From positions 111,726,001-111,790,000 of the forward strand of contig NW_024704742.1 in assembly GCF_018977255.1 (NCBI RefSeq): a stretch of 64,000 nucleotides of DNA. Direction: 5' to 3'. Source of the DNA: Callorhinchus milii (lineage: Eukaryota). Below, in pieces: positions 4,455 through 52,208 of this stretch; position 1 is the first letter of the stretch, and each line of letters opens with the position of its first letter. The translations under genes and the position numbers were made by a program. The notes beneath the pieces are model-generated. The model was not told where the DNA came from. It did not search any database and saw only the letters and a program-made list of their open reading frames with translations.

Positions 4455-5015
4455 TGGTGAGACCATACATAGAGTACTGTGTACAGTTCTGGTCGCTGCA
4501 GTACAAAATGGATATTGGAGAAATTGAGAAAATACAGAGGGCAATCAAAATGATTGAGGGAATGGAAGGACTGGACTATGAAAACAACTAAGTAAATTGG
4601 GTGTGTTCACACTGGAAAAGAGAAGATAGAGAGGCAATATGATTGCTGTCTTTAAGATTCTAAAGAGGCAAGACAATATAGATCATGACAGGCTGTTTCA
4701 ACTTGTCCAGAATAGTAGAACCAGAGGACACGGCCTGCGACTGAAGGGGGACATTCAGAACGAATTTACGCAAATACTATTTCAGTGAGCGAATAGTGAA
4801 CCTGTGGAATAGGCTCCCTAGGGAGATGGTTGAAGTAGGAAGCATTGATTATTTCAAAGACAGATTAGATAGTTTTCTTTTAGGATATAACATTATGGGA
4901 TATAGTACATAGGTAGTTTGGGACATATGTGCATGCGACTGTCAAGAAGATGGAAGGCGAACTAGATGGACCTTGGTCTATTTTCATCTAGGATTTCTTA
5001 TGTTCTTATGTTCTT
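4455..5015 (+). mobile_element. CR1 3' fragment
   Basis: RPYIEYCVQFWS, RGNMIAVFKIL and RIVNLWNRLP-like translation; ttcttatgttcttatgttctt tail. Confidence 0.88.
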
Positions 5016-5087
5016 AAAAAAAGAAACAAAAGAATGGTCAAGAAATGGAATTGCTGTATTTAAATTCACTACGTTTTATTGATTGTG

Positions 5088-5418
5088 ATAATAATAATAA
5101 TAATAATAATCCTTGCATTTGATATAGCGCTTTTCACGTCGGGAGGACGTCCCAAAGCGCTTCACAGAACACACTGTAAAGTGAATTGACTGTATATTTG
5201 TGGGCAAACGCGGCAGCCAATTGCGCACAGCAATGTCCCACAAACAGTCATAGATTGAAAATGACCAATTTATTATTGTTTTTGGTTTTTGGAGGGATTA
5301 TTATTAGGCGTGTGGAGTAAGGAAACTTGCCCAAGGTTTCGCCCTGACCTGCCTGGAATTGAACTCAGGTCTCTCGCTTGCAAAGCGAGTGCTCTTACCA
5401 CTGAGCTACAGGACTCCA
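5088..5418 (-). mobile_element. tRNA-Ala-derived SINE, short young subfamily
   Basis: Head with A box, ctcgc-TTTGCAA-gcgag anticodon arm and B box; Deu-like body; L2-like tail; (ATT)n. Confidence 0.92.
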
Positions 5419-5639
5419 CTAGATACAGATGTCAGAGCCAGTGTTAGCCTTGCTCAATTGATAGTATTTCTCAACTTTGAGCCTGAAGATGCAGTATTGG
5501 AGGAATGCCACACTGTTAGAAGTGTAACATTAAGTACCTTAGTGGGATTGCACGCTCCTGGTTTCAGTTTTACTTAACCCACCGCCATCATTAAGTCTCT
5601 GCAAATGTTTTTTTCTCCTGCCCCTGCCAGGTGAACTAC

Positions 5640-6140
5640 GGCAAACCTCAACACTTCATCCTTGATCCCTTCTTTTCCTCATTTACATACTCCCTCTTGG
5701 TGAGGTCATCTACAGATATGAGGCCAACTTTTACATATATGCAGACAACACCCAAATCCTTCAGTTATGATCAAAACTGTGATCTCCTCCAGCTGTGATC
5801 CCAGGACTACCGATGTTCTGTCCTCTGCTTGACAGACATCAAGGACTAGATGAGCACCAACTTTCTGCAGCTGAATGCTAACAAGACCAAAGACTTCCAT
5901 CAACGTCTTCTCACTTGTGGCTCCAGCCTCCCTAATTTCAACAGCCTATCCCTCAAACTTATTGAACATATATACAACCAAGCCATCAGGTTCAAACACC
6001 AGCTGTCCTTCCTACTCCATATCTGGTATCTGACAAGGACCGCTTTCCTTCACCTCTGCCACATTGCCTGCCCTCGACCATACCTCACACTCGACAGAGC
6101 TTTGAAAGGCGCTATATAAATGTAATTTTTGTTGTTGTTG
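5640..6140 (+). mobile_element. Highly degenerate L2 fragment
   Basis: Decayed YAD(N)T, NFLQLN and TAFLHL segments; tail gaaaggcgctatataaatgtaatttttgttgttgttg. Confidence 0.7.
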
Positions 6141-6308
6141 AAAATTGTTGATAGACTTTTTCACGTATTCGTCACCTCCCACCTTATTCATCAACATGGG
6201 GTTGCACATAATGTGGGTCAGAACATTGCTGCGGTGGAACAGAGAGAGGGCAAGAAGAGAAGATTGCACAGGAAACTCAACAGCAGAAGCCAAATTACCC
6301 AAGACGAG

Positions 6309-7100
6309 TACATGAGGGGAGTGTCACTTACCTACACGTGACCCAGGAACAGCACGTATCAAGGCTGCCCTGACGTGAGAGGAGAGAGAGCTGAGCCACC
6401 TGATTGAGGATGACCTGTGCAGCATGCCAGCTGTCAGCACAGCTTTGACAGCAGCTTTAAGCCTCTGCACCACGGGTTCCTTTCAGGCACAAGCAGCCAT
6501 AAGCCTGTGCTCAACACCTTGCCTCATTGAGGAAGCAAACGGAAAGACTGCACAGTAAATGTATGTTTTTGTTTTTTTAAAAGAACACCAGAGCGAAAGT
6601 AGCAACATATTTTCAATGCAGAGAAGATCCCAAAAGTGCAAGGGCTGATTGATTGCATGCACGTAGCAATATACACACCTGCCTTTAATACTAAGCCCTT
6701 TGCAAATCTTCCACTCATTCACTGTACAGATGGCGTAGGACTGCTTAGGCTACAAACATCAATGCCAAATATCCTGGAGGGACATATGACTTTTTCAACT
6801 TCAGACTACCACTGTTTAAGAACTCTTTGAAGGACCAGGAGGATGGATGGCTGGCTACTAAGGGACTTGGGGTATACAACGATGCCTGACTAGTGACCCC
6901 ACTTTATCATTTCCATATCCCAGCTGAGATGGAAGTCACCCAGGCACCTGCCAGAAACAAGAAAATTATTGAAGATACCTTTAGAGTTCTGAAACAAACA
7001 TATCAATGTTTGGATAGGACGGGCTACCCTCCAGGACATGCCTCACTAGTTGGACAAGACCATTGTAACTGTGATCTTTTACATCACATGACAATAGACA
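6309..7100 (+). pseudogene. Decayed Harbinger/PIF (HARBI1-like) DDE transposase
   Basis: Motifs in the expected order across frameshifts: YLHVTQEQHVSRL, TAALSLCTTGSFQ, PKVQGLIDCMHVAI, AKYPGGTYD, GWLLRDLGY, LVTP, IIEDTFRVLKQTYQCLDRTG, CDLLHHM. Confidence 0.85.
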
Positions 7101-8368
7101 AGGTATTGCCAGTACCAATGGAGAAGAAACAACAAAAAAGAACATACATTTTTATGATGCTTTATCACACTAAAGTATCTCAGAGTTCTTCACAATTTAA
7201 TCGTTATCAAATGTAGTTACTGTTTCTGTACATAAAAGCGACAGCCATTTTGCACCAGCAAAACATTACATATAACCATTAAATTTATGAATACATAGAA
7301 TGATAGAGAACAGAACCAGGACAACAGCCCAACTAATCCATGCTAATCTGGAGAATTGTTTGCCAGGAGATAGATAGGGCAAGGTGGAAAAAGAAGGGAG
7401 GGCCAGTGTTTAGGATTCACAAGTTTCAGAAGGTTTACATTTGGCAGCAAAACAGCCTGCATTAATTCCAGAATAGTGCACACAAAGGATGCCAGCATGT
7501 GAAATTCATATAAATACAGAGGTAGGCAGATTAGCTTTTAGTTTTGGCAAATATTGGATCCTTCTTTGTAAATTTTATAGTTAAGCAAATAATTTTTAAA
7601 GCAATATGTGAATAGGTTCAGAGATAGGAACATTGAATTGGATTTGACTGGAAAAGTCACAGAAGTGTTTCTTTACGGTTCATCTAACTGGTCCCACAGT
7701 AAACAAGATCATTCTACAAGTTACAGATTTTCCCTCAGCTTCTCCACAAGATAATTGAGTTACCTTTAACAATGTTGTCGCTTTCCATTTTCTGGGTCTT
7801 TTATGCAATCTTGATATTTTTTCACAGAATCAAACAACGAGGGATGATTCTCTGATTCTCATTAAATATACTGTGACTGAGGTTACAACAGAATATTTCT
7901 GTAACAAACTCACGTTGTCTTGTTTGGTAAATTTAATGACCAGTGGACAATCAGACATTCTGACTTCCAAGATTAGAAATGTGATTTATCCATTCATGGA
8001 TTAACCTCTTTCCACCCTCTCCACCCACATCCCTCCCACTGCAACTTGTTATAATTTCTGTAAATTATTCCAGGGCACTGCTGATGACAGAACAGCCAGC
8101 CTGGCTAATTGGAGGATCTGGAAGGGTAGACCAGTCACTGGGGTAGCAAGTCATCCCACTTAGCTCCTGTTAATCCTGCAAGCCAAAGCCCTAATGGGTA
8201 GGGTGGTCCTAGCTGTAGAAGCATTGGGAACGCTTGTCAGAAAGCAATATCAATGGCAAGCTATGCAGTTTTAGCTGATTATTCCCCAGCAGTATCCCAA
8301 CACACACTCTAGTTGAAATCATTGTCTTGTCTCTTTATGCATTCTGTAAACAGGATCCTGCAAGGACA

Positions 8369-8492
8369 AGAAATGCTAATTTCGATGGATTTTGATAGTA
8401 GAATGCAGGACTGTACAAAAGATATGAGATAAACCATTGGCTCTTGGTTCTTTTGCATTCTACTACCAAAATCCATTGAAATGAGCATTTCT
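8369..8492. repeat. 39-bp inverted repeat (MITE-like hairpin)
   Basis: Arms at 8369-8407 and 8454-8492 pair at 36 of 39 positions. Confidence 0.85.
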
Positions 8493-8704
8493 AGGTCTCA
8501 TATGGCTTTAGTCACAGTAACAGCTTTCTGCATAAAAAAATTTTGTTAGTACAAGGCAACTCAAACATTTGAGGTTCTCACCTCTGCTTTTATGAAGAGT
8601 GATTTCTAAGAATCTGCCTGCAAGGCATTAGCCCAGAAGATCTAAATGCATGTAGTAGGGGAATCTGAGAGACAGCCCAAATAAGGCACACACAAGATGA
8701 CTCA

Positions 8705-9027
8705 GAGGGGACCTCACAGAGGTGTATAAAATTTTAAATGGTTTAAAAAAGTAAATTCAGATCATTCTTTTGGATGCAACAAGATAAGAGGACATAGGTT
8801 TACAGTTGTAAAGGACAAATTCAGGACAAATACCAACCAGGAAGTATTTTCTTTACATAGAGTGTCATCAACAACTAGAACAGGTTGTCAGGAAAGGTGG
8901 TAGAGGCCTGGATATTTAAAAAAGGCAGCTTGATACTGTGTTGTGGGAACAGTAGGATGGGTGTTTTGGAAGGATGGGATTGGTTGAGCTGAGAGTTTTC
9001 TTCATCCAGATCAATCTTGTGATCTTA
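8705..9027 (+). mobile_element. Old CR1 3' fragment
   Basis: RGDLTEVYKILNG-like translation; atcttgtgatctt tail. Confidence 0.7.
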
Positions 9028-12199: not shown

Positions 12200-12630
12200 A
12201 TATGACATAGTGTGTCTTTCTAGACCCTTTGAAAGGTGTTTGATAAAGGACCACATTAGAGACTCCTTCACAAACTGATGTCAATGGGTATCAAGAGCAA
12301 GTCATGGACTTGAAATTGGCTGAGTGGAAAGAGAGCTAGGTCTAAATACAGGGAAGTAGAAAGCAGGGTGCCTCAAGCATCTCTATTGGAACTTGCCCCT
12401 GTTATTTGTATACATTAATGATGTAGATTTATAGACCAAGTGTAAGGTAGTTAAATTTGCAGATGACACCAAGTTAGAGTGAACAGTGGAATCAGAGGAG
12501 GCAGCAAAGAACTCGCAAACAAAGTTTGCTGTGGGCTGATGACTGGCAAACAAGTTCAGTACAGATAAATGAAAGACACTGCATATAGGAATTAATAAGA
12601 GGTACATGTATTCCATGGATGGGACAGGAC
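12200..12630 (+). mobile_element. Old CR1 RT fragment
   Basis: Decayed FDK.PH, YIND.D and VKFADDTK segments. Confidence 0.7.
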
Positions 12631-12866
12631 TCATGGCACAATGGCCCTGCTTCATCCTTTTCTTGCTCTCAAGAAATAGATCTCATGGTTTCTCGCACTC
12701 TACAGAACAATGTTGCCTCCAGTTGGACAGTACAGTATTACCATTAAATGTAGGGTAGTCATGCGTATCTAAGAACATAAGAACATAAGAATTAGGAGCA
12801 GGAGTAGGCCATTCGGTCCTTCGTGCCTGCTCCGCCATTCAATAAGATCATGGCTGATCTTCTCAT

Positions 12867-15840
12867 CTAACTCTGATTACCTGCCCTATCCCCATATCCC
12901 CTAATCCCTCTATTTTTCAAGAATCTATCAGTCTCAGCCTTGAAAATGTTCAAGGACTGAGCATCTACAGCCTTCTGGGGTAGTGAATTCCATAATTCCA
13001 TCCTCTGAGTGAAGAAATGTTTCCTCAACTCTGTTCTAAGAGGCTGACCCTTAACTTTAAGACGGTGACCCCTGGTTATAGATTCTCCTACCAGGGGAAA
13101 CAGTCCCTCTGTGTCTACTTTATCCAGCCCTTTAAGAATCTTATAAGTTTCAATAAGATCCCCCTAATTCTTCTGTACTCTAGAGAATACAGCCCTAGTT
13201 TATTCAGCCTATCCTCATAGGTCAGTCCCCTCATCCCAGGAACTAACCGAGTGAATCTACGCTGCACCCCCTCTAGGGCAAGTATGTCCTTTTTTAAATA
13301 AGGAGACCAAAACTGCACACAATACTCTAGGTGCGGTCTCACCAAAGCCCTATACAGTTGCAGCAAGACTTCCCTACTCTTATATTCTAAACCTTTCGAA
13401 ATGAACGCTAACATGCCGTTCGCCTTCTTAGTTGCTGCTGCACCTGCAAACTAACTTTTTGGGACTGGTGTACAAGGACACCCAAATCCCTTTGAATACT
13501 AACACTATCTAACTTCTCCCCTTCCAGAAAATAATCTGTTCTTTTATTCTTGCTACCAAGGTGAATAATTTCACACTTGCTAACATTGAATTCCATCTGC
13601 CACCTACTTGCCCACTCCCCTAGCCTATCTATATCTTGTTGCAATCTTTTTGCATCATCCTGAGAGCTCACTCTGCTACCTAGTTTAGTATCATCCGCGA
13701 ATTTAGACACATTACATTCAATGTCCTCGTCCAGATCATTGATGTAAATGGTAAATAGCTGAGGCCCAAGCACTGATCCTTGTGGCACTCCACTAGTTAC
13801 ATCCTGCCAATTCGAGAATGATCCGTTTATCACTACTCTCTGCTTTCTACCCGATAGCCACTCTTCTATCCATGTTAATATTTTCCCATTAATCCCGTGG
13901 GCCTTGATCTTGAGTAACAGCCTTTTGTGTGGCACCTTGTCAAATGCCTTCCTAAAATCCAAATATACCACATCTACTGGTTCCCCCTTATCCAACCTGC
14001 TGGATACATCCTCAAAAAATTCTAAAAGGTTAGTCAAGCATGACTTCCCTTTTGTAAAGCCATGTTGACTCTGCCTAATCTTTTTATGGTCTTCCAGGTA
14101 TCCCATAACTACGTCTTTTATTAAGGACTCAAGAATTTTCCCTACAACTGACGTCAAACTAACTGGTCTATAGTTTTCCCTATTTTCTCTCCCACCCTTC
14201 TTAAATAGTGGAGTTACGTTTGCAATCTTCCAATCAATGGGAACTTTTCCAGTATCCACAGACTTTTGGAAGATTATAGACATGCCATCCACTATCTCAG
14301 TAGCCACCTCCTTTAAAACTCTCGGATGCAGGCCATCCGGTCCAGGGGATTTATCGGTTTTAAGACCCGACAATTTACCTAGAACCATCTCTTTACTAAT
14401 GTTAATCTCCCTAAGTTGCTCGCTAACATTGTCTTCTTGGTCCTCTATTTTTGGTATGTTTCCAGTGTCTTCTACGGTGAAGACTGTAGAAAAATACTTG
14501 TTTAATGACTCTGCCATGTCTTTGTCCCCTATTATAATTCCTCCGGTCTCTGCCTGTAATGGACCCACATTCACCCTCGCTAGCCTTTTCCTCTTTATAT
14601 ATTTGTAAAAACTCTTGGAGTCTGTTTTTATGTTCTTTGCTAGTTTGCCCTCGTAATCTATTTTCTCCCTCTTGATCAATTTTTTGGTCCTCCTCTGTTG
14701 TTCCCTAAAGTTCTCCCAATCCTCGGGTTTACTACTCATCTTCGCTGTTTTATAGGCTTTTTCTTTTGATTTGATACTTTCCCTAACTGCTCTAGTTAGC
14801 CATGGCTGCACCACCTTTCCCATGGCATTCTTATTCCTCAAAGGAATATGTGCTCGTTGGGAATTTTGCACTATCTCCTTGAATGTCTGCCATTGCTGGT
14901 CTACCGTCAAATCTTTAAGTTTAGTCTCCCAGTTTATTCTGGCTAAATCCTCTCTCATACCAGCAAAGTTGGCTCGATTTAAATTGAAGACTTTTGCTTC
15001 AGACTTAACTACTTCCCTCTCTAACTTAACGCTAAATTCCATCATATTATGATCGCTTTGCCCGAGAGGAGCCTTAAGTTCCAGTTTGCTGATCAGCCCT
15101 GTTTCATTACACAAAACAAGGTCTAATATGGCTTGTTCCCTGGTCGGCTCCTCAGCATATTGATCTAGAAAATTATCTCTAATACATTCTATAAACTCCT
15201 CTTCTATGTTACCTTTCCCAATTTGGTTGTCCCAGTCTATGTGCAGGTTAAAATCACCCACAATTAGTGTCTTTCCTTTGCTACATGCTCCACTAATCTC
15301 TTGATTTATACCTTGAGCGATACTTTGACCACTGTTTGGGGGTCTATAAACTACTCCCACTATAGTTTTCTGCCCCTTGAAGTTACGTATCTCTACCCAT
15401 ACTGACTCTACATCTTGCTTTTCAGATTTAAAATCTTTCCTCTCTACTGTTTTTATCCCATCCTTTATTAGCAGGGCCACTCCCCCTCCTCGTTTACCAC
15501 ATCGCCTATCTTTCCTATATACCACGTAGCCGGGAATATTCAGTTCCCATCCCTGATCACCCTGTAACCATGTCTCGGTGATGGCTACTAGATCATACCG
15601 GTTTGTCTCTATTTGTGCAACTAATTCATCTATCTTGTTACGAATGCTTCGTGCATTCAGATATAGCGCCCTTAATTCTGACTTCCGGCTATTAACCCTA
15701 TTCACCAGCACTCTATCACTGTACTTCCTTTCCCTGCTTGACACACTTTGCTCCTCTCCCTTGTTAATCTGCTCTCTTTCTATTGTTGATCTCAAGTTTA
15801 ACTGTGGTGGACTATACTTTATGTTTTTACCTCCCCCCCC
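12867..15840 (-). pseudogene. CR1 ORF2 (APE endonuclease + reverse transcriptase) with two 1-bp deletions near the C-terminus
   Basis: Endonuclease motifs YLNARS, ITETW, YRPP, GDFN, SDHN; RT motifs [25 protein letters not shown]. Frame shifts at ~13435 (expected QQATKKANGML) and ~13162 (expected RGDLIETYKIL). The restored frame ends at TAG 12867-12869. Confidence 0.9.
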
Positions 15841-16773
15841 TTAGTAGTTTAAAGCCCTTTCTACCTCCCTATTTATTTGCGTAGCCAGGACATTTGTCCC
15901 AGCCCTATTTAGTTGGAGCCCATTCCTTTGGAAAAGCTCCCATCTTCCCCAATACTCGTGCCAGTGGCCCATGAATTGGAATTCCTGCTCTCCGCACCAC
16001 TCTTTTAGCCAGGCATTCAGATCTATGATCTTCTTTTGCCTGTACCAATTAGCTCCTGGCTCAGGTAACAGTCCCAATATCATCACTTTGGAAGTTCTAT
16101 TCCTTAGTTTAATTCCCAATTCCCGGAACTCGCTCCTTAACTCGTCCCTACTGGTCCTACCAATGTCATTGGTCCCTATATGTACCATTACGATTGGATC
16201 CTCTCCCTCATGCCTCAAATTTATCTCCAGCCCGGCGGTGACATCCTTCACCCTGGCCCCAGGAAGACAACAGAGTCTTCTTGTCTCCCTGCTACGGCTA
16301 CAGAAAACTGTATCAGTCCTCCCGACTGTCCCATCCCCAATAAGAATTACATTTTTAACCTCCTGCACAGGGGTGTTGGGGTCAGTTTGCCGGTCTTCCT
16401 CGCAGATTTCCTTGTCCACACAAGTTGTCAATATTTCATACCTGTCAGACAAGGCTAAAGTCTGGGATTCTTCAGCCCCTCTCTTTCGGGAACGCTTACC
16501 TGCCCGCCTGACAGTCACCCAGTCATGTCCGTTGCTGCTACATTCTTCTTCCTTGGGACTCAGGGGAGTGTCCAGCTCCAGGATAAAACTGTCCAGGAAG
16601 TTTCCTCCATCCCTAATGCTGCGCAGTGTCGCCACCCGAGACTCCAGCTCAGCTACTCTCAGCTGGAGCTCTCTGATTTCCAGACACTTGCGGCAGACGA
16701 AGTCGCCCGGACTTAAGGCGCCCTCCATTGACTCCCACATGTGACAGACCTCGCAGTTTACCTGCCACACCAT
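15841..16773 (-). CDS. CR1 ORF1 protein (CxxC zinc-finger-like region, coiled coil, SGNH/GDSL esterase-like domain), ~310 aa
   Basis: CEVC...CRKC, heptad repeat LQLRVAELESRVATL, then motifs VILIGDG, CCLPGARV, VHIGTNDIG, NAWLKEWC, GLQLNRAG. First ATG is at 16773; the ORF track starts at an upstream GTG. Confidence 0.9.
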   Translation of the reverse strand: MVWQVNCEVCHMWESMEGALSPGDFVCRKCLEIRELQLRVAELESRVATLRSIRDGGNFLDSFILELDTPLSPKEEECSSNGHDWVTVRRAGKRSRKRGAEESQTLALSDRYEILTTCVDKEICEEDRQTDPNTPVQEVKNVILIGDGTVGRTDTVFCSRSRETRRLCCLPGARVKDVTAGLEINLRHEGEDPIVMVHIGTNDIGRTSRDELRSEFRELGIKLRNRTSKVMILGLLPEPGANWYRQKKIIDLNAWLKEWCGEQEFQFMGHWHEYWGRWELFQRNGLQLNRAGTNVLATQINREVERALNY

Positions 16774-17767
16774 CTTCACAAACTTTATATTGATACAAAG
16801 ATATATAGCCTGCCCCCACTTCCCCCTCTGCACCTAATTCCCACTCTCACCAAATTCCCTCACACTCTGGCCTCGCCTCACTCCGGACGTAGCTCACTCT
16901 GGGCTCTCGGCTCGACTTTATCTGATAAAGTCCGAGGTACCAGTTCCACACTGAACAAAAACTCCAAAAAAGCCATTATTCCATGGATTGGCAATCGTTG
17001 GTTACAATCTGTGAGCTGGATGCCCAACACAGCAGAATCAGCTTCTCAAACTTCAACACAAAGAAGAGTATTGGGGGAGCAAACTCTGACCCATTGACCC
17101 ATTTGATATACTAAATATTTTGAGCCCATTATTTCTTAATGCATTTCCTGAGAAAGGTGACTTTACTTGCCTGATTTTCATGGCATGAAGCACAGAAGAA
17201 TCGTAATATTTCTTAGTCATTTCTCTTTCCTCTGTGTGGACCTACTGTTTAGACTGAGTCTAGTTAGGTCACAGACACACAATCAATTAAGGGAAGGAAA
17301 ATTTGAGCCACAATATTGTAGTGCTGCACAGCTTCCTAGCGACTGAACCCTGAAAAATAATCATCTACTTGAGCTCGAGTTTTGGGGTAGGAGCAAATAA
17401 ATGTACAAAATGCTAGAAACAAATTACCCATCAGTGTACTCTAAAGTTGTCAGTGTAAATTATGCTAGGGTCTTAAATATCCATCAAATTATTTTGGTTG
17501 TCAGTGAGACCAAACTTTGTGCAAGATTTCGAGGGAAAATTTAGGACACTCAAAGGTCGGGCTTTACTTTATAATTCAATCAACACTCCAAGATGTTTGA
17601 CATGCTAATAAACATTCATCCTATTGCACTATAGTTTTCTTTTCAGTCTGGCCCAATTTAGTGAAAACTAAAGCAAATGTGTTACAAGCATGTTATTTTT
17701 CAGACAGCTGTTGAAGCTCGCTGACTTGTGTTACAATGAATATTGGGCATAATCTTGGCCACATCTA

Positions 17768-20852: not shown

Positions 20853-22328
20853 AACCAAGTCTTTTAAGCTCTCATTCAATCTGAGGGACTCTTTCTAACT
20901 GCCATTATTGACTGCTTGCACCACATTTTGAAAACATTTTGATAGTCTCTTTAATTATCTGAGATATCCAAATAATCAAGCAGAAAAAGTGAGACTGAAA
21001 TTAAATTTCAAAGTCTACTCTAGAGCCAGAAGGGAACACAAAAGACGAAGTGCTCAGTTTCACTTCTTGTTTCAAGAAGTGCTGCAGAGACAGGCTGGTA
21101 GTGTTGAAGCTGACTTCACAAGCCTGCGGTCACAATTTGAGTTCCAGGCATACTTTGTGACACATTTCATCCGGTCTCAGATGTGCCATTAGCTGCAACA
21201 CCTCGTGGTAGAAGACTCTGTTTTCTTTCAGCTAAAGGAAAATCTGGCAAAGATCACCCCACTGGGCAGCAAGCACCCTTTCTGTTGACTGAGCAGGCAA
21301 GGCACATTGGTATGAAAGTCAGCGTCGACGCCACAATTTACTTATGCGTCTGCTCTAATTAAAGAAGGTTCCACCGTGGAGGTGAAAGGCCCCATGAGGT
21401 GAATAAACTGTGAGAGGGAAAAATCAGGAGGAGAAATATGTCAATTAAGAAAGAAATATGGAAAAATCCATCTATATGCAATATTATTACAAAACAATTC
21501 TTAACATTGTTGTGATTCTATGCAGACTGTTGCTTGGTCCACATTTGCCCCACGTTTAGTAAATTGTTTAATCACAATCATTTTGTTGTATACACATCTG
21601 CAACATTTGTAACATTCTCAGTAAACATTACAGTTACAGATGCTTTGGGCATTTATCACAAACTCACTGATATTGCTAGACTGATAACTCAGGTATGTAT
21701 TATCTTATTGAATGGATGAAAGTATTACAGATCTCTGCCATTAATTCAGAGAGAGATTCTCTGCAACTCTTTGGGGATTATGCAATGATCTGGTCTCTGC
21801 TCTTAGCCCATTGTAGATCAATGAATGACTGTTGGAATTCTGAATGATCACATTATATAGTTAAATAGCTACATTAACTTTCACAGGCTCTCATATCCCC
21901 AAACAATAGCACCAACTCCTATGAGGCCTCTGTGTTATTCTGTCCTAATACATTGGGATTTGTGGTATTGTGGTAAATATAGTGGCCAAAAAGATGGTAG
22001 GATAAGGGAGTATTATCAGGTCTAATGTAATACCATTGGGTTTGGATTGTGCCAAACTGAATCATTTTCCTGTCAGTAACCATATGTAATTGTACTTCCA
22101 AGATTCTGTAACAGCCCAAACTTTATTTCAATTGTGAATTCAAGCTGTTGTATCTCTTATGATTGTCTTATGTTGACTGTGATCTTATGGAACAATGACA
22201 TACTGTCCATGGCTCTACAATGTTCTAAAGGATTTTAGAATTAAATGCTGTAAGCACAGTTTCAATACTGTAGGTTGCAATGAAAATTGATACGCTGTAA
22301 TGTGTGTAAAATAAAAAGGTGGCGCTGT

Positions 22329-22717
22329 TAATAATAATAATAATAATAATCCTTGTATTTGATATAATGCCTTATCACGCCTTCAAGACATCTCAAATCA
22401 CTTCACATAATATTCCATAAAGTGGAGTTACTGTATATTTTGTAGGTGAAATGCGTCAGCCAATTATACACAGCAGTGTCCCATAAACAGTGATGGATTG
22501 AGTGACCACATTATTAGTATTTTTGTATTATATTATATTTTTGAAGGGATTATTACCCCCGGAAAGCTATCCGCCTATCGATTAACAATCGGGTTCCTAC
22601 TTACTGCTATGTAAACAGCCATGTGTGAAGTAAGGAACCTTGCCCAAAGTTTCACCACACCCGGGAATCGAACCCGGGTCCTCTTGCGAGGTTTGTGCTC
22701 TAACCTCTATGCTATAG
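22329..22717 (-). mobile_element. tRNA-derived SINE, long subfamily
   Basis: (AAT)n tail, internal block, cccgggaatcgaacccggg B-box arm. Confidence 0.85.
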
Positions 22718-23721
22718 GGTTAGTGTACGTGCAGCAAACAAAAGTATAGGAAATGTCATTTTACTGCATGGTGAAACTTTAGCCTCAACTCCTATATCAT
22801 AACATATGATTAGTCAGCCCTCGATGAGCAATTTCTCTGTTAGGGTGGATATAACCCACTTAAAGTTTTGGCATTTTGACTCATTGATGTAGGGGATATC
22901 ATCAGCTGCAGCAGCAGTATCTAATGCCCATGTCTGGTTGCCCTGACAATGTGGTAATGCTTGATGCTCCCATGATGGTACAGTAAACTCCTAGGGATTT
23001 ACTGGGATTTACAGGGATCCGGAATTGGGACCAAACCAGACAGGACCTAAAACAGAATTTGCGCTGTCCTGTGCTGGTGTAGATACCACTGGCCTCACTC
23101 TCCTGTCACATGCCCCCACCTCACCGTGCTTGCTGGCCTTCAGTGGCCAGAGATATCCACTTTGATTCAGTTTGAATCCTATGCGCAGAAGACAGCTTAT
23201 TCACTTTCTTCCGCTTGCAGGATTCAAACCATTATATTGCCGCTACCAGCAATTACTGCCATTTTGCATCACGGAAAAAAACCAGCGCCGAAAAATGACA
23301 GTAAATTCCAGTACCAGCATTGTAATTATACTTAACCAGAAATTGCGGCTTGCTGATTATCCCCCTCATTGGTCCGACTTCCCCTCATTGGTCCGACTAT
23401 GGGAATGGAGTTTTAGGATTTTGATCCATCGGTGACGGAGGTGCAGCCCTATATGTCCATATCAGATTATCCCTGTTGAATTGGACTGCAACCACCACTA
23501 CAATGATGGAGCTAACAGATAAGGATATTTGCTGGGACAATGACCTCTTCTCCTGGGAGAAATCCAATTGGTTTGGATGAAGAAGGCCCTTCGGCTCATC
23601 TGATCTCATTCCTACAGTCACTTCTTCCATCCCCCAACTTAGTGCTCCACCACTAGGATGCTACTCTGCATGAGGAGCGCTATATAGATGCAAGTTGTTG
23701 TTGTTAATCCTATTATAAATA

Positions 23722-24155
23722 TATAATAATAAACCTTGTATTAGATATACCGCCTTATTACATTGTCGATATGTTTCAAACTTCACAGAATATACTAAAG
23801 TGGATTGACTGTGTATTTTTGGGCAAAATGCGGCAGCCAGTTGCCCACAGCAATGTCTCACAAACAGCCATGGAGTGAGTGACCAATTTTATTTGGGAGA
23901 TAGTTGGCCAGAACACCAGGAGAAATGCCCTTCTTTTTCGAAAAGTGCCAAAGGATCTTTAACATCCACTTGAACAAGTAGACGGGGCCTCAGTTTAACA
24001 TCTCATCCAAAGGCCTGCACCTCTGACAATGCAACACCCCTCCAGCACTGCATTGGAGTGTCACCTTAGACTGTTTGATTCCAAGTCCCTACGTGGGGCT
24101 TGAACAACCTTCTGACTCAGAGACGTGAGTGCTATCACTGAGCCTCTGATACACT
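23722..24155 (-). mobile_element. Old Deu-domain SINE (SacSINE1/AmnSINE1-like), near full length
   Basis: Head ggctcagtgatagcactc...tctgagtcagaaggttgttcaagcccc; Deu-like core tttggatgagatgttaaactgaggcccc; L2-like tail. Confidence 0.8.
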
Positions 24156-24902
24156 GGTCTAATTAGAACATACTCCACCATGACACCATCAAGTTGTTTT
24201 TTTAAATGAGTCCAGCATCCTGGTCTCAACCACACTTCCTGGCAACCTGTTCGAACTCATTCATGTCTGTTCTTTCATTTTCAATATAAACTGAATTTTC
24301 AATATTGCATCGAGAGACTCGTGACATCAAATCTAAAAGCAAATATGTTAGGCCAAAAAACAAGTCAAGAAAATTGGTTGACAAGCTGCCAGCGTACAGC
24401 ATTATGGTAAGGGGAAACTTACTTTAGTCTGATAAACTACATTAATGTTTTAATTGTGGTGAATCTATACATGTATTGGACTATAAATGTACATTTATGC
24501 AGAAATAAATGTCAATTATACCATCTTATTTGATAGTACAAGTGTATGCATTAAGTAGTTGGCAACACAATCTTATTTTGTCATGTTTTATTGTACAGTT
24601 TTAAATTAGCTAAGTTTTTCTTAAATTATGTGTCTCAAAGAATTTGTTGAAAAAAATGAGCTTGGGCTCTCATTTTTCCAGCTCGATTTTAAGTTTTTAT
24701 TTAAAATGGCTTCAAGCAAAGACAACAATATTCACATTGTGCTTTCTTATGAAAAGACTAAATTCTCCTCTTAAATAGGGCACCCGGGTTCCCAATCAAA
24801 CCTCAGAGCAAAACCTGCATTCAGCATGGGGAATTACACACTAATGATGCATGGACTCATTTAAATATTCCTCATACATTCATCTGCTGGCTGGAGTCCA
24901 AA

Positions 24903-25200
24903 ATGGTGGTAGAGCAGAGCAGAGCTAGACAGCACAAAGGCTGTCTTCATGAGGCAGAAGTTGACCTTACAGAGGAAGTGCTCAGGAACAAAGTGAAACT
25001 GTTTGGCATTGCCAGCAAGGGTTCCATCTCAACGGTGCTTAGCAAGACCTGGGAGAAGACTTGTGCCAAGATCAATGTAATTCCCAAATCGAGAGGACAG
25101 GGGATGAGTGCACTTTAATGATGTCAGTCGGCATGCAAAGAAGAAAACACACTTGCTAAATGAAAGGCCATTCACAAAACGAGAGTGGACCACCTTCACT
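24903..25200 (+). pseudogene. Decayed Myb/SANT-like (trihelix) DNA-binding ORF of Harbinger type
   Basis: EAEVDLTEEVLRNKVKLFG...KTWEKTCAKIN, then after frameshifts RTGDEC, FNDVSRHAKKK and SGPP; NAIF1/MSANTD-like pattern. Confidence 0.7.
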
Positions 25201-25924
25201 GCACTTGGCAACAACTAACATAACCACAAGACAATGGCCCCACTGAACCTATCTCTGAAGCACAACAATTAGAGTTTTCTCTGCAAAGTGGAGCCTGGCA
25301 AGTATCTATTTGGTAAACAATACCACATTCTAAAATGACTTGAATTAAAAATTATAATTAACGTTTCTTCCTGGAATGAGTCAACTAATTTATCTGAGAA
25401 GATTTTATCTGCCTGTTGTTGCAGTTCAAGTTAACCAACAGTAGCAGAGATATCTCTACTTAAAAAAAGACAGAAACACAGGATGTAAGCTATATAATTG
25501 AAAGAAGAAAGTACTGACCACAGGCACTACTGAACTGCAAACTCACAAAACTCTTTTCTGTTTTCTTTCCATCCAGGACTGGTGAATACATTGCTGGTAT
25601 CCACCCAGGTCCACACCCTTTGGTTCTTCTGCCAAGCCTTTGGTAGCTACTGGTTCAATGCAGATGAATGCAAGGTACTGAGTACAGGAAATGAAACTGA
25701 GAGACGTATGCCATGGTATTCCACGGATGGGATAAAACTTGCCAAAGGGAAAGTTGAAATAGAGCTAGGAATCTGAGTTGACTTGTTGCTCACCATATTT
25801 AAACAGTGTGAGGTAGAAATAAGAAAGGCAAATAGGCTGCTGGGCTATATTGCCCAATCAGTTGAGTCAGCTCCTCAGAGGTCATCATTAAGCTGTGTAA
25901 TATTCTGTTTGGGCTGTATTGGCA

Positions 25925-27910
25925 GACATCAGCCTGGCTCACTTGGTAGCACTTGCACCTCTAAGTCAGAAGGTTGTGGGTTGAATTCCACCTTGGGATT
26001 TTGACTCAGTCTAGGCCAGCATGCCAATGCAATGCTTGGTTTAATGTCTCTTCTGAAGGACAACAATGAAATCCTGGAGCAGCATTGCATTGCTGTCTTT
26101 TGGATGAGACATTAAACCAAAATCCCATCTGTTTGTTGATGTTGATGTTAACGATCCTATGGCATTATTTCAACAACAACAGGATTCCATTTATAGAGCG
26201 CCTTTCATGTCGGGAGGACGTCCCAAGGCGCGGGACAGTTGGGTCAGGACCCGAACAAGGGGGAAAATGGTCAGGGTGAGGGAAGGGAAAGGAGGGAGCG
26301 AGGAGGGGGGAAATGGTCAGGGTGAGGGGAGGGAAGGAAGGGGGCGAGGAGAGGGTAGAGAGTTGAGAGGGGAGCTGAAGGCATAGTCAAAGAGAAAGAT
26401 CTTGAGACCGGCCTTGAAGGAGGAAAGGGACAAAGCAAGGATAGAGTTCCAGCGCCTAGGGGCTGAGAGGCTGAAGGCCCTGCCACCGATGGTAGGGCGG
26501 CTGGGGCGGGGGATGTGAAGCAGACCGGAGCCAGAGGAACGGAAGGTATGGGCAGGTAAGTAGGGGAATAGTAGGTCAGAGAGTAGGAGGGAGCAAGGCC
26601 GTGAATGGCCATGTAGGCGAGGATGAGGATCTTGAATTCGATCCTCTGGGGAATGGGAAGCCAGTGGAAGTGAGCGAGGGTGGGAGTGATGTGGTCGCGA
26701 AGCCTGGTGCGGGACAGTACACGAGCTGCAGAGTTCTGAATGACCTGCAGCTTGTGGAGGGAGGTGCCAGGAAAGCCGGCGAGGAGAGAGTTCCCATAGT
26801 CCATCCTTGAGGTGATAAAGGTGTGGACCAGAGTTTCAGCAGCGTGAGGGGTGAGGTATTGCCGTAGTCTGGCGATGTTTCGGAGGTGATGGAAGGCGGT
26901 GCCAGTTGTGGTGCGGATATGAGGAAAAAAAGACAGCTCAGGGTCGAACAGAACCCCGAGGTTCCTGATTGGCTTTGAGAGGTAGAGAGTGCAGCCTTGG
27001 ATGGTGATGCTGTCAGCGCCAGAGTGCGGAGGCGCTGACACCAGCCAATCAGGAGGGCCTCGGTTTTACGCACGTTGAGCTGAAGAAAGTTGTCTCTCGT
27101 CCAGGACTCGATGTCAGACAGGCAGACTGTCAGGACATCGGTGGTCATGGAGTTGAGGGTAAGGAGGAAAAGTAGAGTTGGGTGTCATCCGCATACATGT
27201 GGAAGTTAACCCCATGTCTGCGGATGATGTCACCAAGGGGGAGCATATAGAGGGTGAAGAGGAGGGGACCGAGGACAGAGCCCTGAGGGGCACCGCACGA
27301 GACAGTGCGGGGGCTGGAGGAAAAGCCGTTTGTGGAAACAAAATGAAGACGGTGGGAGAGGTACGACCTAAACCACTCAAGGACAGGGCCTTGAAGGTTG
27401 AGGTGGGAGGACAAGCGGTGGAGGAGGATAGCGTGGTCGACCGTATCGAATGCCGCCGATAGGTCGAGGAGGACGAGGAGGCAGAGAGAGCCCTGGTCGC
27501 AGATGGTCAGGATGTCATTGGTGACCTTGATCAGGGCAGTTTCTGTGCTATGGGTAGCACGGAAACCCGACTGAAGCGGTTCGAATAGTGTATGGGTGGA
27601 GAGGAAAGAGCGCAGCTGGGAGGCGACAACTCTTTCAAGGACCTTGGACAGGAAGGGACGGTTGGAGATGGGCCGGTAGCTTTCACTTTCAAAAGTGAAG
27701 GGAATTTCTCCGGGTGTACTTACCCAATCACCCAGATTCAATTTGTCACTGGTCATTTGTGGCTGTTTGTGCGACATTGCTGTGCATAAATTGGCACAAA
27801 CTTTGTTCACCGACAAAATAGTTACTACAGCTTACAGGAAACTCTGGCAAGTGTTTTAAGATGTTCTTCCAACGTGAAAGGTGTTTAGCAAATGCGAGGA
27901 TTATTAGTAT
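25925..27910 (+). mobile_element. Old Deu-domain SINE split by the 26171-27682 L2
   Basis: Head and core at 25925-26170; the remainder (gggaatttctcc...gacattgctgtgcataaattggc...aggattatt) at 27687-27910. Confidence 0.75.
26171..27682 (-). mobile_element. 5'-truncated L2 LINE (RT to tail, frameshifted) nested in an old Deu-type SINE
   Basis: ORF pieces 27145-27816 and 26271-27041 closely match the protein of the 50.7 kb copy. (CAA)n tail at 26171. Confidence 0.95.
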
Positions 27911-28809
27911 TTATTATAGATTAATGAATCTTTAAGAATATAGGAAGAAGAATTCTTCACTGCAGTTGACTGGCAGCTTTCCTGCAAAAACTTACTCATC
28001 TAACTTTTTCAACTCTTTCATAAGATTTGTGTAAAGATGTCTTTTAATTCTCCTCGGTCTTGGCATTTGTGCTTGTGTGTCTTTTAAGGCTATTAATAAT
28101 CCTTGTATTTTGATAAAGTGCCTTATCACGTCTTCACAACATCTCAAAGAGTTTCACAGGGTATACTGTGTACTTTGTGGGTGAATCACTCTGCCTGTCA
28201 ATAAACTCATTTTAGTTTAATTTTCTAAAGCTTATGTTCCATTGTAACATTTTGTCTTATGATACAGATTGGGATGCAGTTGGAGTCAATGAGATACAAT
28301 AATAATTATCAAATATTGCATGGTAAAGTCCTGAGAAAAAACAATAGAAAAGATATATGTTACCGAAAAAAGGGCACAGTCCTAGTTCCTAAAAGGTGAT
28401 ATGCTTTTAGATTTTGTATGTATTCCTTAATATAAGAAAGATTCCTCAAAGGCTTTTGAGTTATAACGATTATGATCTATGAATCTACTGTTGAGGTCAA
28501 TCAAAATAATAACTCAAATGGTTAATAATAATTATCATCCTCGATTGACAAATACAGCCTAAAAGTATGATGATGATTTGCGAAACATGATTTTCCCATT
28601 TTATGGGCAACATAATTTATTTTTAATACTTCATTCATTACGTGGATTTTGAGGAATCTCTCCTCTGACAAATCTCTATCATAATGATATTCTGTGCACA
28701 GTTTCTTGGACTTTCCCACAATGCTTCTAATAATGGGATAAATCCTGAAAAGTTTTAAGTTGGACACCATTGTCTATATATTTGTGTCCTTGCCTGGTTC
28801 TAATCTTAC

Positions 28810-30229
28810 CTTTCCCATCGTTTGCACTTCGTGTTCACTAACGTCATCTCCTCTAGCCCCAGTACTGTCACATGCGGCATCCCGCAGGGCTCTGTCCTTG
28901 GTGCCCTCCTCTTCAAAACGTACACCCTCCCACTCTGTGATGTCATCCACAGGCATGGGGTCAATTTCCACATGTATGCGGATGATACCCAACTCTATCT
29001 CGACGCCTCCAGCCTCGACTCCAGGACCACGACTGTCCTGGTTAATTGTTTGTCAACATCAAGTCCTGGATGAGAGCCAACTTCCTCCAGCTGAGTTTTG
29101 GGCAAGACAGAGGCCCTCCTGCTTGACTTCTGTCAGTGCGTCCTCACCTCAGCCACTGGCACTATCACTATTCATGGCTGCACTCTTCACTTCACCGAGC
29201 CAATACGGAACCGTGAACCTCTGTTTGACCCTCAGCTATTTTTCAAGCCCCACATTCGTGCCATGACCTGTTTCGCCTTTCCTGAACTCCACGACATTGC
29301 TCGCCTCTCACCACAGGCCACCGAGACCCTTATCCATGCTTTCATCACGTCCCAGCTTGACTACGCCAATTGCCTGCTTGCTAGACTTCCCAACTCTTCC
29401 CTTCACAAGTTGCAAATTATTCAGAACTCTGCAGCTCATGTCCTCTCCTGCACCAGGCTCCAGGAACCTATCACCCCCATTCTTGCCCTTCTTCACTGGT
29501 TCCCCATCCCTCAGAGAATCGAGTACAAAACCCTCATTCTCATCTTCAAAGCCTTCCATGGTCTCATTCCTTCCTACCTCTGCGACCTCCTAACACCATA
29601 TCTGCCTGTCCACTCCCTCCACTCGGCGGACACCTGGAGTCCTGTAGCTCAGTGGTTAGAGCACTCGCTTTGCAAGCGAGAGACCTGAGTTCAATTCCAG
29701 GCAGGGTGAAACCTTGGGCAAGTTTCCTTACTCCACACGCCTAATAATAATCCCTCCAAAACAAAACAATAATAAATTGGTCATTTTCAATCTACGACTG
29801 TTTGTGGGACATTGCTATGCGCAATTGGCTGCCGCGTTCACCCACAAATATACAGTCAATTCACTTTACAGTATATTCTGTGAAGCGCTTTGAGACGCCC
29901 TCCCGACGTGAAAAGCGCTATATCAAATGCAAGGATTATTATTTTTTATTACACCGGCCTGCTTCAGGTCCCCCGCACTTCCCTACCCACAATTGGAAGT
30001 CGAGCATTTAGTTTCTCTGCCCCCACACTCTGGAACTCTATTCCGCAAACTCCCCGTCGCACCTCCTCTCTTGCCTCCTTCAAGTTCCACCTGAAGAGCT
30101 TCCGCTTCAACTGTGCCTTCGGCCATCCTCCCAATCCCACCCCACCCATCCCCTCCACCCCTGCCACCCACGATTATCCATTGGCTTGGGAAGTCTTTCG
30201 TTATACAAGTATAATTTGTTGTTGTTGTT
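28810..30229 (+). mobile_element. Degenerate L2 copy interrupted by a SINE
   Basis: PQGSVLG, YADD, LDYANC and LHWFP motifs in ORFs 28822 and 29098; (TTG)n tail at ~30217-30228. Confidence 0.9.
29635..29950 (+). mobile_element. tRNA-Ala-derived SINE, short subfamily, inserted in an L2 with TSD ACACC
   Basis: ACACC at 29630-29634 and 29951-29955; the L2 sequence rejoins when the SINE is removed. Confidence 0.95.
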
Positions 30230-47910: not shown

Positions 47911-50668
47911 TTGTGCTTCACCAAGGTTGTGTCACCTAAAATTGCATCTAGATTCTATTGCAATGCCTGTAGCATTGCACTAATGCTACCTATGCCCCTT
48001 CCTGCCTGGGCTTGGTATGTCACGACAAATTGGGTAAGGGGGAATGCAAATAAGAGCACATGTGCGAGAGTTTCAAGAAGCAATTGCACCACAAAATTCA
48101 GGGCAAGATACAATTACCATAGCATCATAGTGGAATCACTGACAAGAGACTTCTGCCTCTTGTCACAAACATCCACAGACAGTCGGTCTGAAACAAAACA
48201 GAAACAGACAGTTTTATTGAAGAAGGAAACAACAAACAGCAGCCTTTAGACTGACAAGAAACCACACCCCATTGACCACACACAGCGAGATTTTAGAAAA
48301 ACAGCTTTCTGCATTTCGCCTTTTATCCAGTCATGTTGACTGAAGCAGCTCACCTGCCCTACAATACCCTCAGTTCAAATACATTTAGATTAAAATGTTT
48401 ACTCTTCTTATGTCTTCCATGTGGAATGAACTATGCAAAAATGATTTTTGAAAAAAATCTTTAGAAAAAGAAAGCTACCTTCACCAATGTAAACTATTGT
48501 TTCGCCCACAAAATATAGTCAATTCACTTTACAATAAAATACACTGTGAAGCGCTTTGAAATATCTTGAACGCGTGATAAGGCGCTACATCAAATGCAAA
48601 GAGTATTATTATTATGTTAAAGTACACTAAACTACACTAAAATTGGATAAACCTCTCCTAAAATTAAACTTGGTAGCAGCAATTCAAATCTGCTGTGATT
48701 TTTACAAGAATTCTGACTGTCTTTTGAAACAACACTTTACAAGGTGAAAATGTATATAAGCACAGTTCGTGTACCTACGTCTTCGTGTCTGTGAATACCT
48801 TGTGACCGAATTGGGAGCACTGCCTTGTTGGTACACTTACAGTCCTGCACATATAAAATGATTTACCAACAAGTGTTGTGTAACCATTGCGCTGTTTTCT
48901 AACTCATTATGAACTGCAAAAATAGCTGATAATTATCACAGAAAACACCTTATGAAATGTCACAGATTACGTATGTAACTTAGTTATTCCAAGTATGTTA
49001 CTCAAGGCAATAAGAGCTCAACATTTTGCAATCTATCTTGAGTCATTAAAAGCTAGAATACACAAACATTTTCAGTTCTTTGATATGCTGAAACAACTAG
49101 TGTTTGCAAACAGGAATTTCAGGTTTTGCAAGTCAGAAATTCCACAAAAAGAAACAAAAAGTTTTCAATATTTCAATTTCAAATCATTGTTTAATGTTAA
49201 AAAAAAGTCTTAAGTGTGTTAAGCTATGAATCTATATGAACTGGTTTATTTGTATAGCTTTTTTAGTTCATGGGGGTAGAGAGGAAGAATACCTCTTGTG
49301 ATGTACTGTGCACCCTGTACTCTCTCCCGCACAGGACACTGCAAGCCTATCACCCCCATCCTTGCTATGCTGCACTGGGTCCCTATGCCCCAGTAAATTG
49401 TCTTCAAATACCTCCATGAACTTGCCTCACCTAAAATTTGACATTTCAAATTTCCCTTTCCAAATCCTGTCAATGAGTCAGCCCGGTTGTGCTGTCATCA
49501 GCATTGCCCTGGAATACTGCAAACCCGCCTATCTCAGGAACTGGACTACTAAGACTCCCACAGTGGGCTGGCTTGATGCCTACATTCCATTACCAAACAT
49601 GTCACCTTTGAATCAGTTCAGCTCCACAGAAACCCGGCTTACCTCTCTCCCCTCAGGAGGACAGTCACTAGTTGATCATTTGACAACTAACAAATGCAGG
49701 TTTGAGCCCTCACTAAGTGGATGGTAGGTAGCAGGAACTCTTTGCGAAATTCCCGGCAGGCAACATAGCTCAGCGTGAAATGTATGAGAGCATTGCCACC
49801 ACCTTCCTGTCCATAGCTCAGATACACATCCCTCCCTATTAAGAGATGGTTCACCAGTTGGAGGTGCAGAGTTTAAACAGCAGCTGCTTACCTCTCTGCA
49901 GGACAATCAAGGTGGATTCCAGGTCTGATGGGCACATCAAGAATTGTGTATGAGAGGACACAAGATGCAGATTTCTGGTTGGTCGACAGCTTGTGCAGGG
50001 TGGAGATGGGGAGCTTGGCGAGCAAGGCATTTGAATAATTGACATTCAACAACTGTGTGAATGCCATTAGGATTAAGATCATTTTGATCATTTTTATTCC
50101 TGTGAAGATGTATGTATTAAATATATTAATACATTAAATGTATTAAATCTCTTTCCACTGCACATTTCTCATGGCAGATTCTGTTGCAGTCGGCACTGCT
50201 TGTCTTCTCAGTACAAGCCACAGTATAACTGGCCACATGGTAACAATTACAGACCACAACACACACTCTGCCTGTCGCCGCACACCAGACGGTCCCATCA
50301 TCAAATAATTCAACAAACTTACCACCACCTATTAAGGTTTTTATTCGAAACATCCCTCCAACCCCACTGGTTCAGCTTCCACTCCTGACCACTTTGACAT
50401 CTGTTGCTTACTAAAATGTTCTATGTAGCTTAGTCTGTTGAGCAGTAGAACTGGGACAAATTGTTCTGGGCTCAAAATTGGATCCTTCACCATTTCTAGG
50501 CCAATACAATCCCTGAAAGTTTCCTCCTTGATAATTTGATCTTTACCATCAAGCCAAAGGCCAAACAGGTGGGAGTGGTGCTCATGGACATATATCAATG
50601 CTGCAGTTGTCCTTTGCCATTCATTCTTGCTTTTTAAACTGCCCCCCCAACCCGCCCTCCATCTTAAT

Positions 50669-52208
50669 ATCAAGCTACCGGCCCATCTCCAACCTCCCCT
50701 TTCTCTCCAAAGTCTTGGAAAGAGTTGTCGCCTCCCAACTGCGCTCTTTCCTCTCCACCCATTCTCTTTTTGAACCCCTTCAGTCAGGTTTCCGTGCTGC
50801 TCATAGCACAGAAACTGCCCTGGTCAAGGTCACCAATGACATCCTGACCATCTGTGACCAGGGCTCCCTCTGTCTCCTCGTCCTCCTCGACCTATCGGCA
50901 GCATTCGATACGGTCGACCACACTATCCTACTCCACCGCTTGTCCTCCCACCTCAACCTTCAAGGCACTGTCCTTGAATGGTTTAGGTCGTACCTTTCTC
51001 ACCGTCTTCACTTCGTCTCAACGAATGGCTTCTCCTCCACCCCCCGTACTGTCTCATGTGGTGTCCCTCAGGGCTCTGTCCTCGGTCCCCTCCTCTTCAC
51101 CCTCTATATGCTCCCCCTTGGTGACATCATCCGCAAACATGGGGTTAACTTCCACATGTATGCGGATGACACCCAACTCTACCTTTCCTCCTCTACTCTC
51201 AACTCCACGACCACCGATGTCCTGACAGCCTGCCTGTCCGACATCGAGTCCTGGACGAGAGACAACTTTCTTCAGCTCAACGTGCAAAAAACCGAGGCCC
51301 TCCTGATTGGCTCACGTCAGCGCCTCCGCACCTCAGGCGCTGACACCATCAGCATCCAAGGCTGCACTCTCCACCTCTCAAAGCCAGTCAGGAACCTCGG
51401 CGTTTTGTTCGACCCTGAGCTGTCCTTTCTCCCTCACATCCGCACCACAACTGGCACCGCCTTCCATCACCTCCGGAATATCGCCAGATTACGGCACTAC
51501 CTCACCCCTCACGCTGCTGAAACCCTGGTTCACGCCTTTGTCACCTCAAGGCTGGACTATGGGAACTCTCTCCTCGCCGGCCTTCCCGCCACCTCCCTCC
51601 ACAAGCTGCAGGTCATTCAGAACTCTGCAGCTCGTGTACTGTCCCGCACCAGGCTTCGGGACCACATCACTCCCACCCTCGCTCGCCTCCACTGGCTCCC
51701 CATCCCCCAGAGGATTGATTTCAAGATCCTCATCCTCACCTACAAGGCCATTCACGGCCTTGCTCCCTCCTACCTCTCCAACCTACTATCCCCCTACCTA
51801 CCTGCCCGTACCCTCCGTTCCTCTGGCTCCGGTCTGCTCCACGTCCCCCGCCCCAACCGCCCTACTATCGGTGGTCGGGCCTTCAGCCTCTCAGCCCCGA
51901 GGCTCTGGAACTCCATCCCCCAGTGCCTTCGCCTTGCTTCCTCCCTTTCCTCCTTCAAGGCCGGTCTCAAAACCTTTCTCTTTGACCGTGCCTTCAGCTC
52001 CCCTCTCGACTCTCTTCCTCCTCCTCGCTCCCTCCCTTCCCTCCCCTCACCCTGACCATTTCCCCCTCCTCTCTCCCTCCCTTCCCTCCCCTCACCCTGA
52101 CCATTTCCCCCCTGCTCGGGTCATGACCCAACTGTGCAGCGCCTTGGGACGTCCTCCTGACGTGAAAGGCGCTCTATAAATGGAATCTTGTTGTTGTTGT
52201 TGTTGTTG
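50669..52208 (+). mobile_element. Young 5'-truncated L2-clade LINE with an uninterrupted RT and C-terminal frame (ORF 50598-52055)
   Basis: [64 protein letters not shown]; (TTG)n tail. Possible TSD TTAAT at 50664-50668 and 52209-52213. No endonuclease domain. Confidence 0.95.

Follow-up and report, generated by a model that had tools for sequence, protein, structure and literature searches.

A predicted −1 frameshift signal at the ORF1–ORF2 junction of esterase-type CR1 retrotransposons, seen through a decayed copy in Callorhinchus milii

Introduction

CR1 elements have been described as dominating the retrotransposons of most vertebrates (PMC13343379). The element studied here lies on the minus strand of a 64-kb window of Callorhinchus milii DNA (contig NW_024704742.1, positions 111,726,001 to 111,790,000; "the window" denotes this whole stretch). 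It resembles the esterase-type vertebrate CR1 long interspersed nuclear elements (LINEs; ORF1 type IV, zinc finger/leucine zipper plus esterase) in having two open reading frames (ORFs), an SGNH esterase in ORF1, an APE endonuclease and a reverse transcriptase in ORF2, and an 8-bp terminal repeat (PMC4120745). How the CR1 reverse transcriptase is translated is not stated in the accessible parts of the CR1 literature searched, and a term search of the available text of four CR1 papers (PMC4120745, PMC13343379, PMC4316615, PMC3905857) returned no mention of frameshifting. A literature search found no report of CR1 frameshifting; the original descriptions of CR1 (Haas 1997, Kajikawa 1997) stood outside that search and may already mention an overlap or a frameshift.

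Coronaviruses use the slippery heptamer U_UUA_AAC to pass from pp1a to pp1ab. The CR1 junction is like such viral −1 sites, including retroviral gag-pol, in its heptamer class (PMC5009743), in the phasing of the heptamer where the first ORF ends and, in 10 of 11 related loci, in the −1 frame of the second ORF. Among elements without long terminal repeats (non-LTR), the APE-type TRE5-A and TRE3-A of Dictyostelium are said to depend on −1 frameshifting for their ORF2 (PMC5911963), and HeT-A requires a frameshift (PMC5009743). SART1 and mammalian L1 have bicistronic LINE RNAs in which ORF2 begins beside the ORF1 stop or beyond it, as here. A first-pass annotation of the window had proposed recoding at the CR1 junction, either by stop readthrough or non-AUG reinitiation or, if the family has seven or ten G in place of eight, by a −1 shift. 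Here we argue, with a probability of roughly 0.7, that esterase-ORF1 CR1 LINEs would make ORF2 protein mostly as an ORF1–ORF2 fusion via programmed −1 frameshifting. The junction appears to be a deeply conserved recoding-type site, viewed in the window via a damaged copy.

Results

The minus-strand letters at 15855–15829 agree with the first-pass annotation. The heptamer U_UUA_AAC is correctly phased in ORF1 and is followed by TAC, TAA and a run of eight G (G8), and an 810-codon ORF2 frame continues in the phase of ORF1 with that single UAA between them. The annotation had rightly placed the first ORF2 Met beyond the endonuclease motifs; its figure of about 250 codons is corrected to codon 266, and a start at this Met would lose the entire endonuclease. 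The −1 frame is indeed closed in this copy, with the stop six codons past the heptamer and not five. The window copy is dead: its G run departs from the −1 layout by a single letter, and two more frameshifts, near 13430 and 13150, interrupt ORF2. The same-frame layout of its ORFs looks like a lesion of this copy. Taken alone, the 9-mer TTTAAACTA is at chance level (one found versus 0.88 expected in 64 kb), and it exceeds chance only because of its position and its conservation in relatives. A second GTTAAAC at 15801–15795 was taken as chance; it differs in the loose ends of sequencing runs X17 and X18.

A metagenome scan yielded 36 related loci, of which 21 stop short of the ORF1 terminus and 15 cover the ORF1 end. 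TTAAAC stands at the end of ORF1 in 14 of the 15, with a stop immediately after the heptamer in 12 of the 14 (the exceptions being L020 and L028). Codons were counted in 13 related loci plus the window (L028 left out), with protein identities between loci of mostly 15–70%. The last Leu is encoded by TTA and the Asn by AAC in all 14; the base before TTA is T in 13, under Ala, His, Cys and Ser codons, and G in L002. Where Ala precedes the heptamer Leu, its codon is always GCT (10/10). For comparison, TTA was used in 2 of 47 cases at four other conserved Leu columns and AAC in 4 of 12 at another Asn column, and the background TTA share of Leu in six ORF2s is 0.03–0.24. The TTTAAAC conservation that the first-pass annotation had looked to is therefore present, and it points to a heptamer conserved as DNA, not as protein. 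If there were no signal, Leu-Asn would be kept for the esterase fold, the heptamer would be a by-product and the ORF2 frame would be arbitrary. The chance-level count of the 9-mer is compatible with such a view, as is the invariance of L308 and N309 in the ORF1 protein alignment (17 of 29 matches aligned). Protein selection, however, cannot fix TTA among six Leu codons 14 times in 14 or GCT ten times in ten, nor the reading frame that ORF2 has in 10 of the 11 informative loci (below), and we regard the absence of a signal as scarcely tenable and as largely refuted by codon-level conservation. A variant heptamer, G_UUA_AAC, was seen at L002:681–690; two stops follow it, and the 973 codons of ORF2 are intact in the −1 frame.

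The C-terminal ends of more distant ORF1 proteins were also compared. Among the 29 ORF1 protein matches, 18 end in LN and one in LNY, and the ten with other ends are mostly partial or chimeric models. In a wider set of 150 representatives, 107 extend to the C-terminal helix and terminate no more than 25 residues further on; 67 of these end in LN (56), GN (10) or KN (1), and heptamer-compatible dipeptides amount to 4.9% inside ORF1s. A residue without a T-ending codon precedes LN in 1 of 56 cases, versus 18.5% before internal Leu (p = 1.4e-4) and 13.8% at nearby positions (p = 0.002), both values being uncorrected for kinship in a set with some near-copies. The residue before GN is Gln (nine) or Ser (one). 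Seven further proteins carry KN at about that position and then continue into a tail, and GN and KN each cluster in clades of their own. LN, GN and KN would be the products of U_UUA_AAC, G_GGA_AAC and A_AAA_AAC, respectively, which are three of the four most shift-prone heptamers (PMC5009743). Scans of viral contigs and prokaryote genomes found no DNA for GN- or KN-ending ORF1s, and one relatives scan gave two weak viral matches at 25% identity. Five ORF1s (P0083, P0099, P0143, P0148, P0121) have FF near the end, which fits U_UUU_UUY, and two (P0158, P0170) end in EN, which fits the imperfect heptamers G_GAA_AAC or A_GAA_AAC.

The start of the endonuclease is visible in 11 related loci. In 10 of them (L001, L002, L003, L004, L005, L008, L009, L010, L023 and L033) it lies in the −1 frame, which is open from the heptamer onwards, whereas that frame is not open in the window copy. 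Sibling copies were surveyed in four of 24 sequencing runs (X4, labelled as the same species; X8; X17 and X18, from two related species), whose contigs were placed on 15680–16020. Of the four X4 contigs placed, two cross the junction (heptamer and linker), and both have a net gain of two letters, which puts ORF2 in the −1 frame as derived from net indel counts rather than from the complete letters. Record 17 spans the full stretch with six substitutions, a G run one letter shorter and three letters inserted at 15819, the window linker being 3 nt shorter at 15819/15820 by comparison. Record 18 differs by 59 substitutions and single-letter insertions at 15821 and 15829, and the two records reach the same −1 frame by two distinct indel routes. 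One X8 contig (depth 53) is one run letter short; most X8 depth ends within the G run. In X18, one joint, seen in a single contig, drops a net 39 linker letters, a multiple of three. The X4 contigs and the 10 of 11 related loci support well the suggestion that the family has a run of seven or ten G and a predicted gag-pol-like fusion with ORF2 in the −1 frame.

The same loci bear on stop readthrough, which would mean that a chimaera subfamily switched to a leaky UAA with ORF2 in frame (G8 or G11). Such a layout is what the window copy has, with ORF2 in frame behind a single stop; G8-length and G11 forms were seen in X17 and X18, and P0001 shares with the window the additional UAC codon that precedes the stop. 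Against this, ORF2 is in frame 0 in none of the 11 informative related loci, both spanning X4 contigs are in −1, the heptamer is kept intact, the window copy has two further frameshifts, and UAA is a tight stop when the next base is G. We therefore consider readthrough very improbable. Polymerase slippage in the G run was rejected as a fusion mechanism because the ORF1 stop sits 5' of the run. In X17 and X18, sequencing depth reaches approximately 22,000–26,000 at 15848–15871, covering the heptamer and the bases just 5' of it, versus approximately 5,000–9,000 in nearby ORF1 coding sequence, as if several subfamilies shared just that short stretch.

In the related loci the −1 frame is open for 1–37 codons 5' of the heptamer without a Met, and ORF2 thus has no overlapping upstream AUG. 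The main rival to frameshifting is termination-reinitiation, in which ribosomes would restart a few bases past the ORF1 stop in the −1 frame, on AUG or non-AUG, and produce a separate ORF2 protein. Precedents exist among non-LTR elements in the SART1 stop-start and in mammalian L1 (PMC5972666, PMC3708506). A SART1-type AUG beside or overlapping the ORF1 stop is present in five of 11 loci, lying 2 nt beyond the stop codon in L003, L005, L008 and L010 and forming an overlapping TAATG in L033; it is absent from the other six and from the window (no AUG there in L001, L002, L004, L009, L013, L023 or the window). Reinitiation also leaves unexplained the invariant synonymous codons 5' of the stop and the exchange of LN, GN and KN. 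We judge it unlikely as the general route; in bird-type lineages it could operate alongside frameshifting. Of the recoding originally proposed, the −1 branch is thus supported, readthrough is unsupported and reinitiation is retained as the rival.

Folding found no stem of the stimulatory kind that the first-pass annotation had envisaged downstream; a conserved G-tract was found instead. In the window, segments of 68–141 nt 3' of the heptamer fold no better than shuffles (z from +0.45 to +2.21; pseudoknots and long-range pairing unmodelled). A small hairpin approximately 27 nt 3' of the heptamer was noted in two bird-type loci (L008:1231–1290, L013:3421–3480), not significant versus shuffles. 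A run of at least five G begins at +7 to +11 after the heptamer in 12 of 12 junctions, nine of them at +11, and L028 likewise has G5 at +11; 11 of the 36 loci match the pattern. The candidate signal is approximately 25 nt long. In each of the 12 elements the G-tract stretch ranks among the highest 2% of windows scored by G4Hunter, and it may be a quadruplex, a protein-binding site or mere Gly-rich linker coding; the use of the Gly codon GGG throughout the tract would favour a role in the RNA. The natural use of G-quadruplexes in frameshifting was unknown as of a 2016 review (PMC5009743).

The nucleotide-level conservation and the G4Hunter ranking would also suit a TTTAAAC-stop-G-tract motif kept for a non-translational reason, such as an RNA-binding site, a transcription or processing signal or a splice acceptor, with ORF2 expressed otherwise. 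The motif is nevertheless always phased with the ORF1 codons where they stop, and ORF2 follows in −1 in 10 of 11 loci; we find this explanation improbable. A splice acceptor was rejected, as the AG that it would require is not conserved (L023, L033 and the window lack it) and the preceding bases are rich in purines.

The remaining features of the element are collected in Table 1. The window element appears to be an esterase-type CR1 LINE, on the basis of its ORF1, its tail and the 41–43% identity of its ORF2 to related loci. The Pfam matches PF03372, PF14529 and PF00078 in ORF2 all exceed the cut-off, and the ORF1 esterase PF13472 scores 32.8 bits for a cut-off of 32.9. ORF1 aligns at full length with 17 esterase ORF1s and shares 93% identity with a UniRef entry from Callorhinchus milii. 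The 3' end consists of short 8-bp repeats without poly(A). No target-site duplication longer than 6 nt was found around the element, and no second junction-bearing copy occurs in the 64-kb window.

Table 1. Features of the CR1-type element and its ORF1–ORF2 junction (window coordinates)
Feature	Position	Strand	Remark
Near full-length CR1-type LINE, decayed copy	12770..16960	-	5' end approximate (~16900-16960)
ORF1, 310 aa: Cys-rich N-terminus and SGNH esterase, C-terminal end ...ALNY-stop	15841..16773	-	Met at 16773
Slippery heptamer U_UUA_AAC, in ORF1 phase	15847..15853	-	
ORF1 stop UAA, one codon (UAC) past heptamer	15841..15843	-	
G8 run; length differs among copies; fixes ORF2 frame relative to heptamer	15833..15840	-	
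AUG-less linker, G run to endonuclease	15658..15832	-	
ORF2 APE endonuclease, residues 62-264 of ORF2 frame	15049..15657	-	PF03372, PF14529
First in-frame ORF2 Met (codon 266), 3' of entire endonuclease domain	15043..15045	-	
ORF2 reverse transcriptase, residues 550-765	13546..14193	-	PF00078
3' portion of ORF2, two frameshifts (~13441-13423, ~13163-13124)	12906..13441	-	
3' terminal 8-bp repeat, 2.8 copies (CR1-type tail)	12770..12791	-	

The window ORF1 has GLQLN, with Gln (15913) where siblings encode the His of GLHLN; most relatives have GLHL. The esterase GDS motif (ORF1 residues 146–148, ~16330–16340) reads GDG in the window and GDE in P0001, versus a Ser-bearing GDS or RDS kept in 15 of 16 other aligned ORF1s; the esterase serine may have been lost in the window's subfamily. 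Three C. milii host gene models (P0023, P0030 and P0031; eIF4E transporter, DONSON and DAAM2-like) include pieces of ORF1, which probably reflect errors of annotation or exonisation. LINE fragments of other families with reverse transcriptase lie at 27148–27831 (-), 50535–52052 (+) and 60746–61210 (-), all three matching PF00078, and weaker LINE matches at ~12233–12725 (+) and ~28759–29019 (+). These other fragments are 30–44% identical to the ORF2 of the element; none matches its ORF1, and they therefore offer no comparable junction.

Discussion

Under programmed −1 frameshifting, most ribosomes would end at the stop at or just past U_UUA_AAC and release ORF1 protein, while a minority would slip back one base in a tandem −1 shift on the heptamer and, crossing a short linker, go on to translate the endonuclease and reverse transcriptase. 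Pausing would probably be due to the adjacent stop, and perhaps to the G-tract 7–15 nt downstream, rather than to a hairpin. The observations establish the geometry, the conservation at nucleotide level, the lack of a conserved AUG and the presence of the G-tract; the slip itself, the fusion protein and the part played by the G-tract are predicted from them.

Among known proteins, a search for fused ORF1–ORF2 products of greater length gave two host gene models only, which is weak evidence; P0193, a swallow model joining ORF1 to ORF2, skips the junction and is uninformative on it. Several observations weigh against this reading. Efficient −1 sites usually carry downstream structure, and the 80 nt 3' of the heptamer showed no significant fold in 12 junctions (z from −1.77 to +1.67; pseudoknots unmodelled). 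The G run is hypervariable in X17 and X18 (−1 to +4 letters), with lengths spread over all frames. Depth-weighted frames were 242 (−1), 255 (+1) and at least 184 (0) in X18 and 138 (−1), 202 (+1) and at least 110 (0) in X17, where the +1 type exceeds −1; these frames presume no further indel, no contig there reaching from the heptamer to the endonuclease. Since long G runs slip in genomes and in sequencing, these lengths neither prove nor exclude a −1 master copy. Among the related loci, L035 is without the TTAAAC motif, and L028 has the heptamer, no stop and an endonuclease outside −1, its ORF1 also being broken. The first-pass annotation had held that no in-frame AUG precedes the endonuclease; this is so in the window and in L001, but L002 and L009 have one, and five of 11 loci (L003, L005, L008, L010, L033) have an AUG at −1 codon 4–5. 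Approximately 8 of 13 loci belong to one bird-type lineage, which has a motif in common with a swallow ORF1, and the counts therefore overstate independence. Finally, 40 of 107 ORF1s have other ends, and G_GGA_AAC and A_AAA_AAC are deduced from protein only.

If the frameshift is real, CR1 would set its ORF1 to ORF2 protein ratio as retroviruses do. ORF2 protein would be made tethered to the esterase ORF1 protein, which would account for its delivery to the particle, and annotations that begin CR1 ORF2 at the first AUG could miss its N-terminus. We extend this tentatively, at rather less than even odds, to a gag-pol-like −1 shift operating in esterase-type CR1 from cartilaginous fish to birds, driven by the adjacent stop and a G-tract at fixed distance (a G-quadruplex or a G-run-binding host protein), without hairpin or pseudoknot, in which distant lineages have swapped among U_UUA_AAC, G_GGA_AAC and A_AAA_AAC. 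Such a site would be a natural case of frameshifting stimulated by a G-tract, and a hairpin-free stimulator would be unusual in recoding.

Compared with known systems, the junction would resemble a viral −1 site that fails one canonical feature, downstream structure. Unlike viral sites, it has no detected stem-loop 5–9 nt downstream, has a G-tract and an adjacent stop, and belongs to a non-LTR element. TRE5-A and TRE3-A differ from CR1 in clade and in ORF1 type. SART1 and L1 have an ORF2 AUG, whereas the CR1 junction has no conserved AUG and the window family none before the endonuclease. The arterivirus site relies on a short linear C-rich motif approximately 10 nt past the shift site, without structure. 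There, nsp1beta with PCBP stimulates frameshifting in trans (PMC5009743), which is a resemblance only: the arterivirus motif is C-rich and has its protein partners, while the CR1 tract is G-rich and has no known binding protein.

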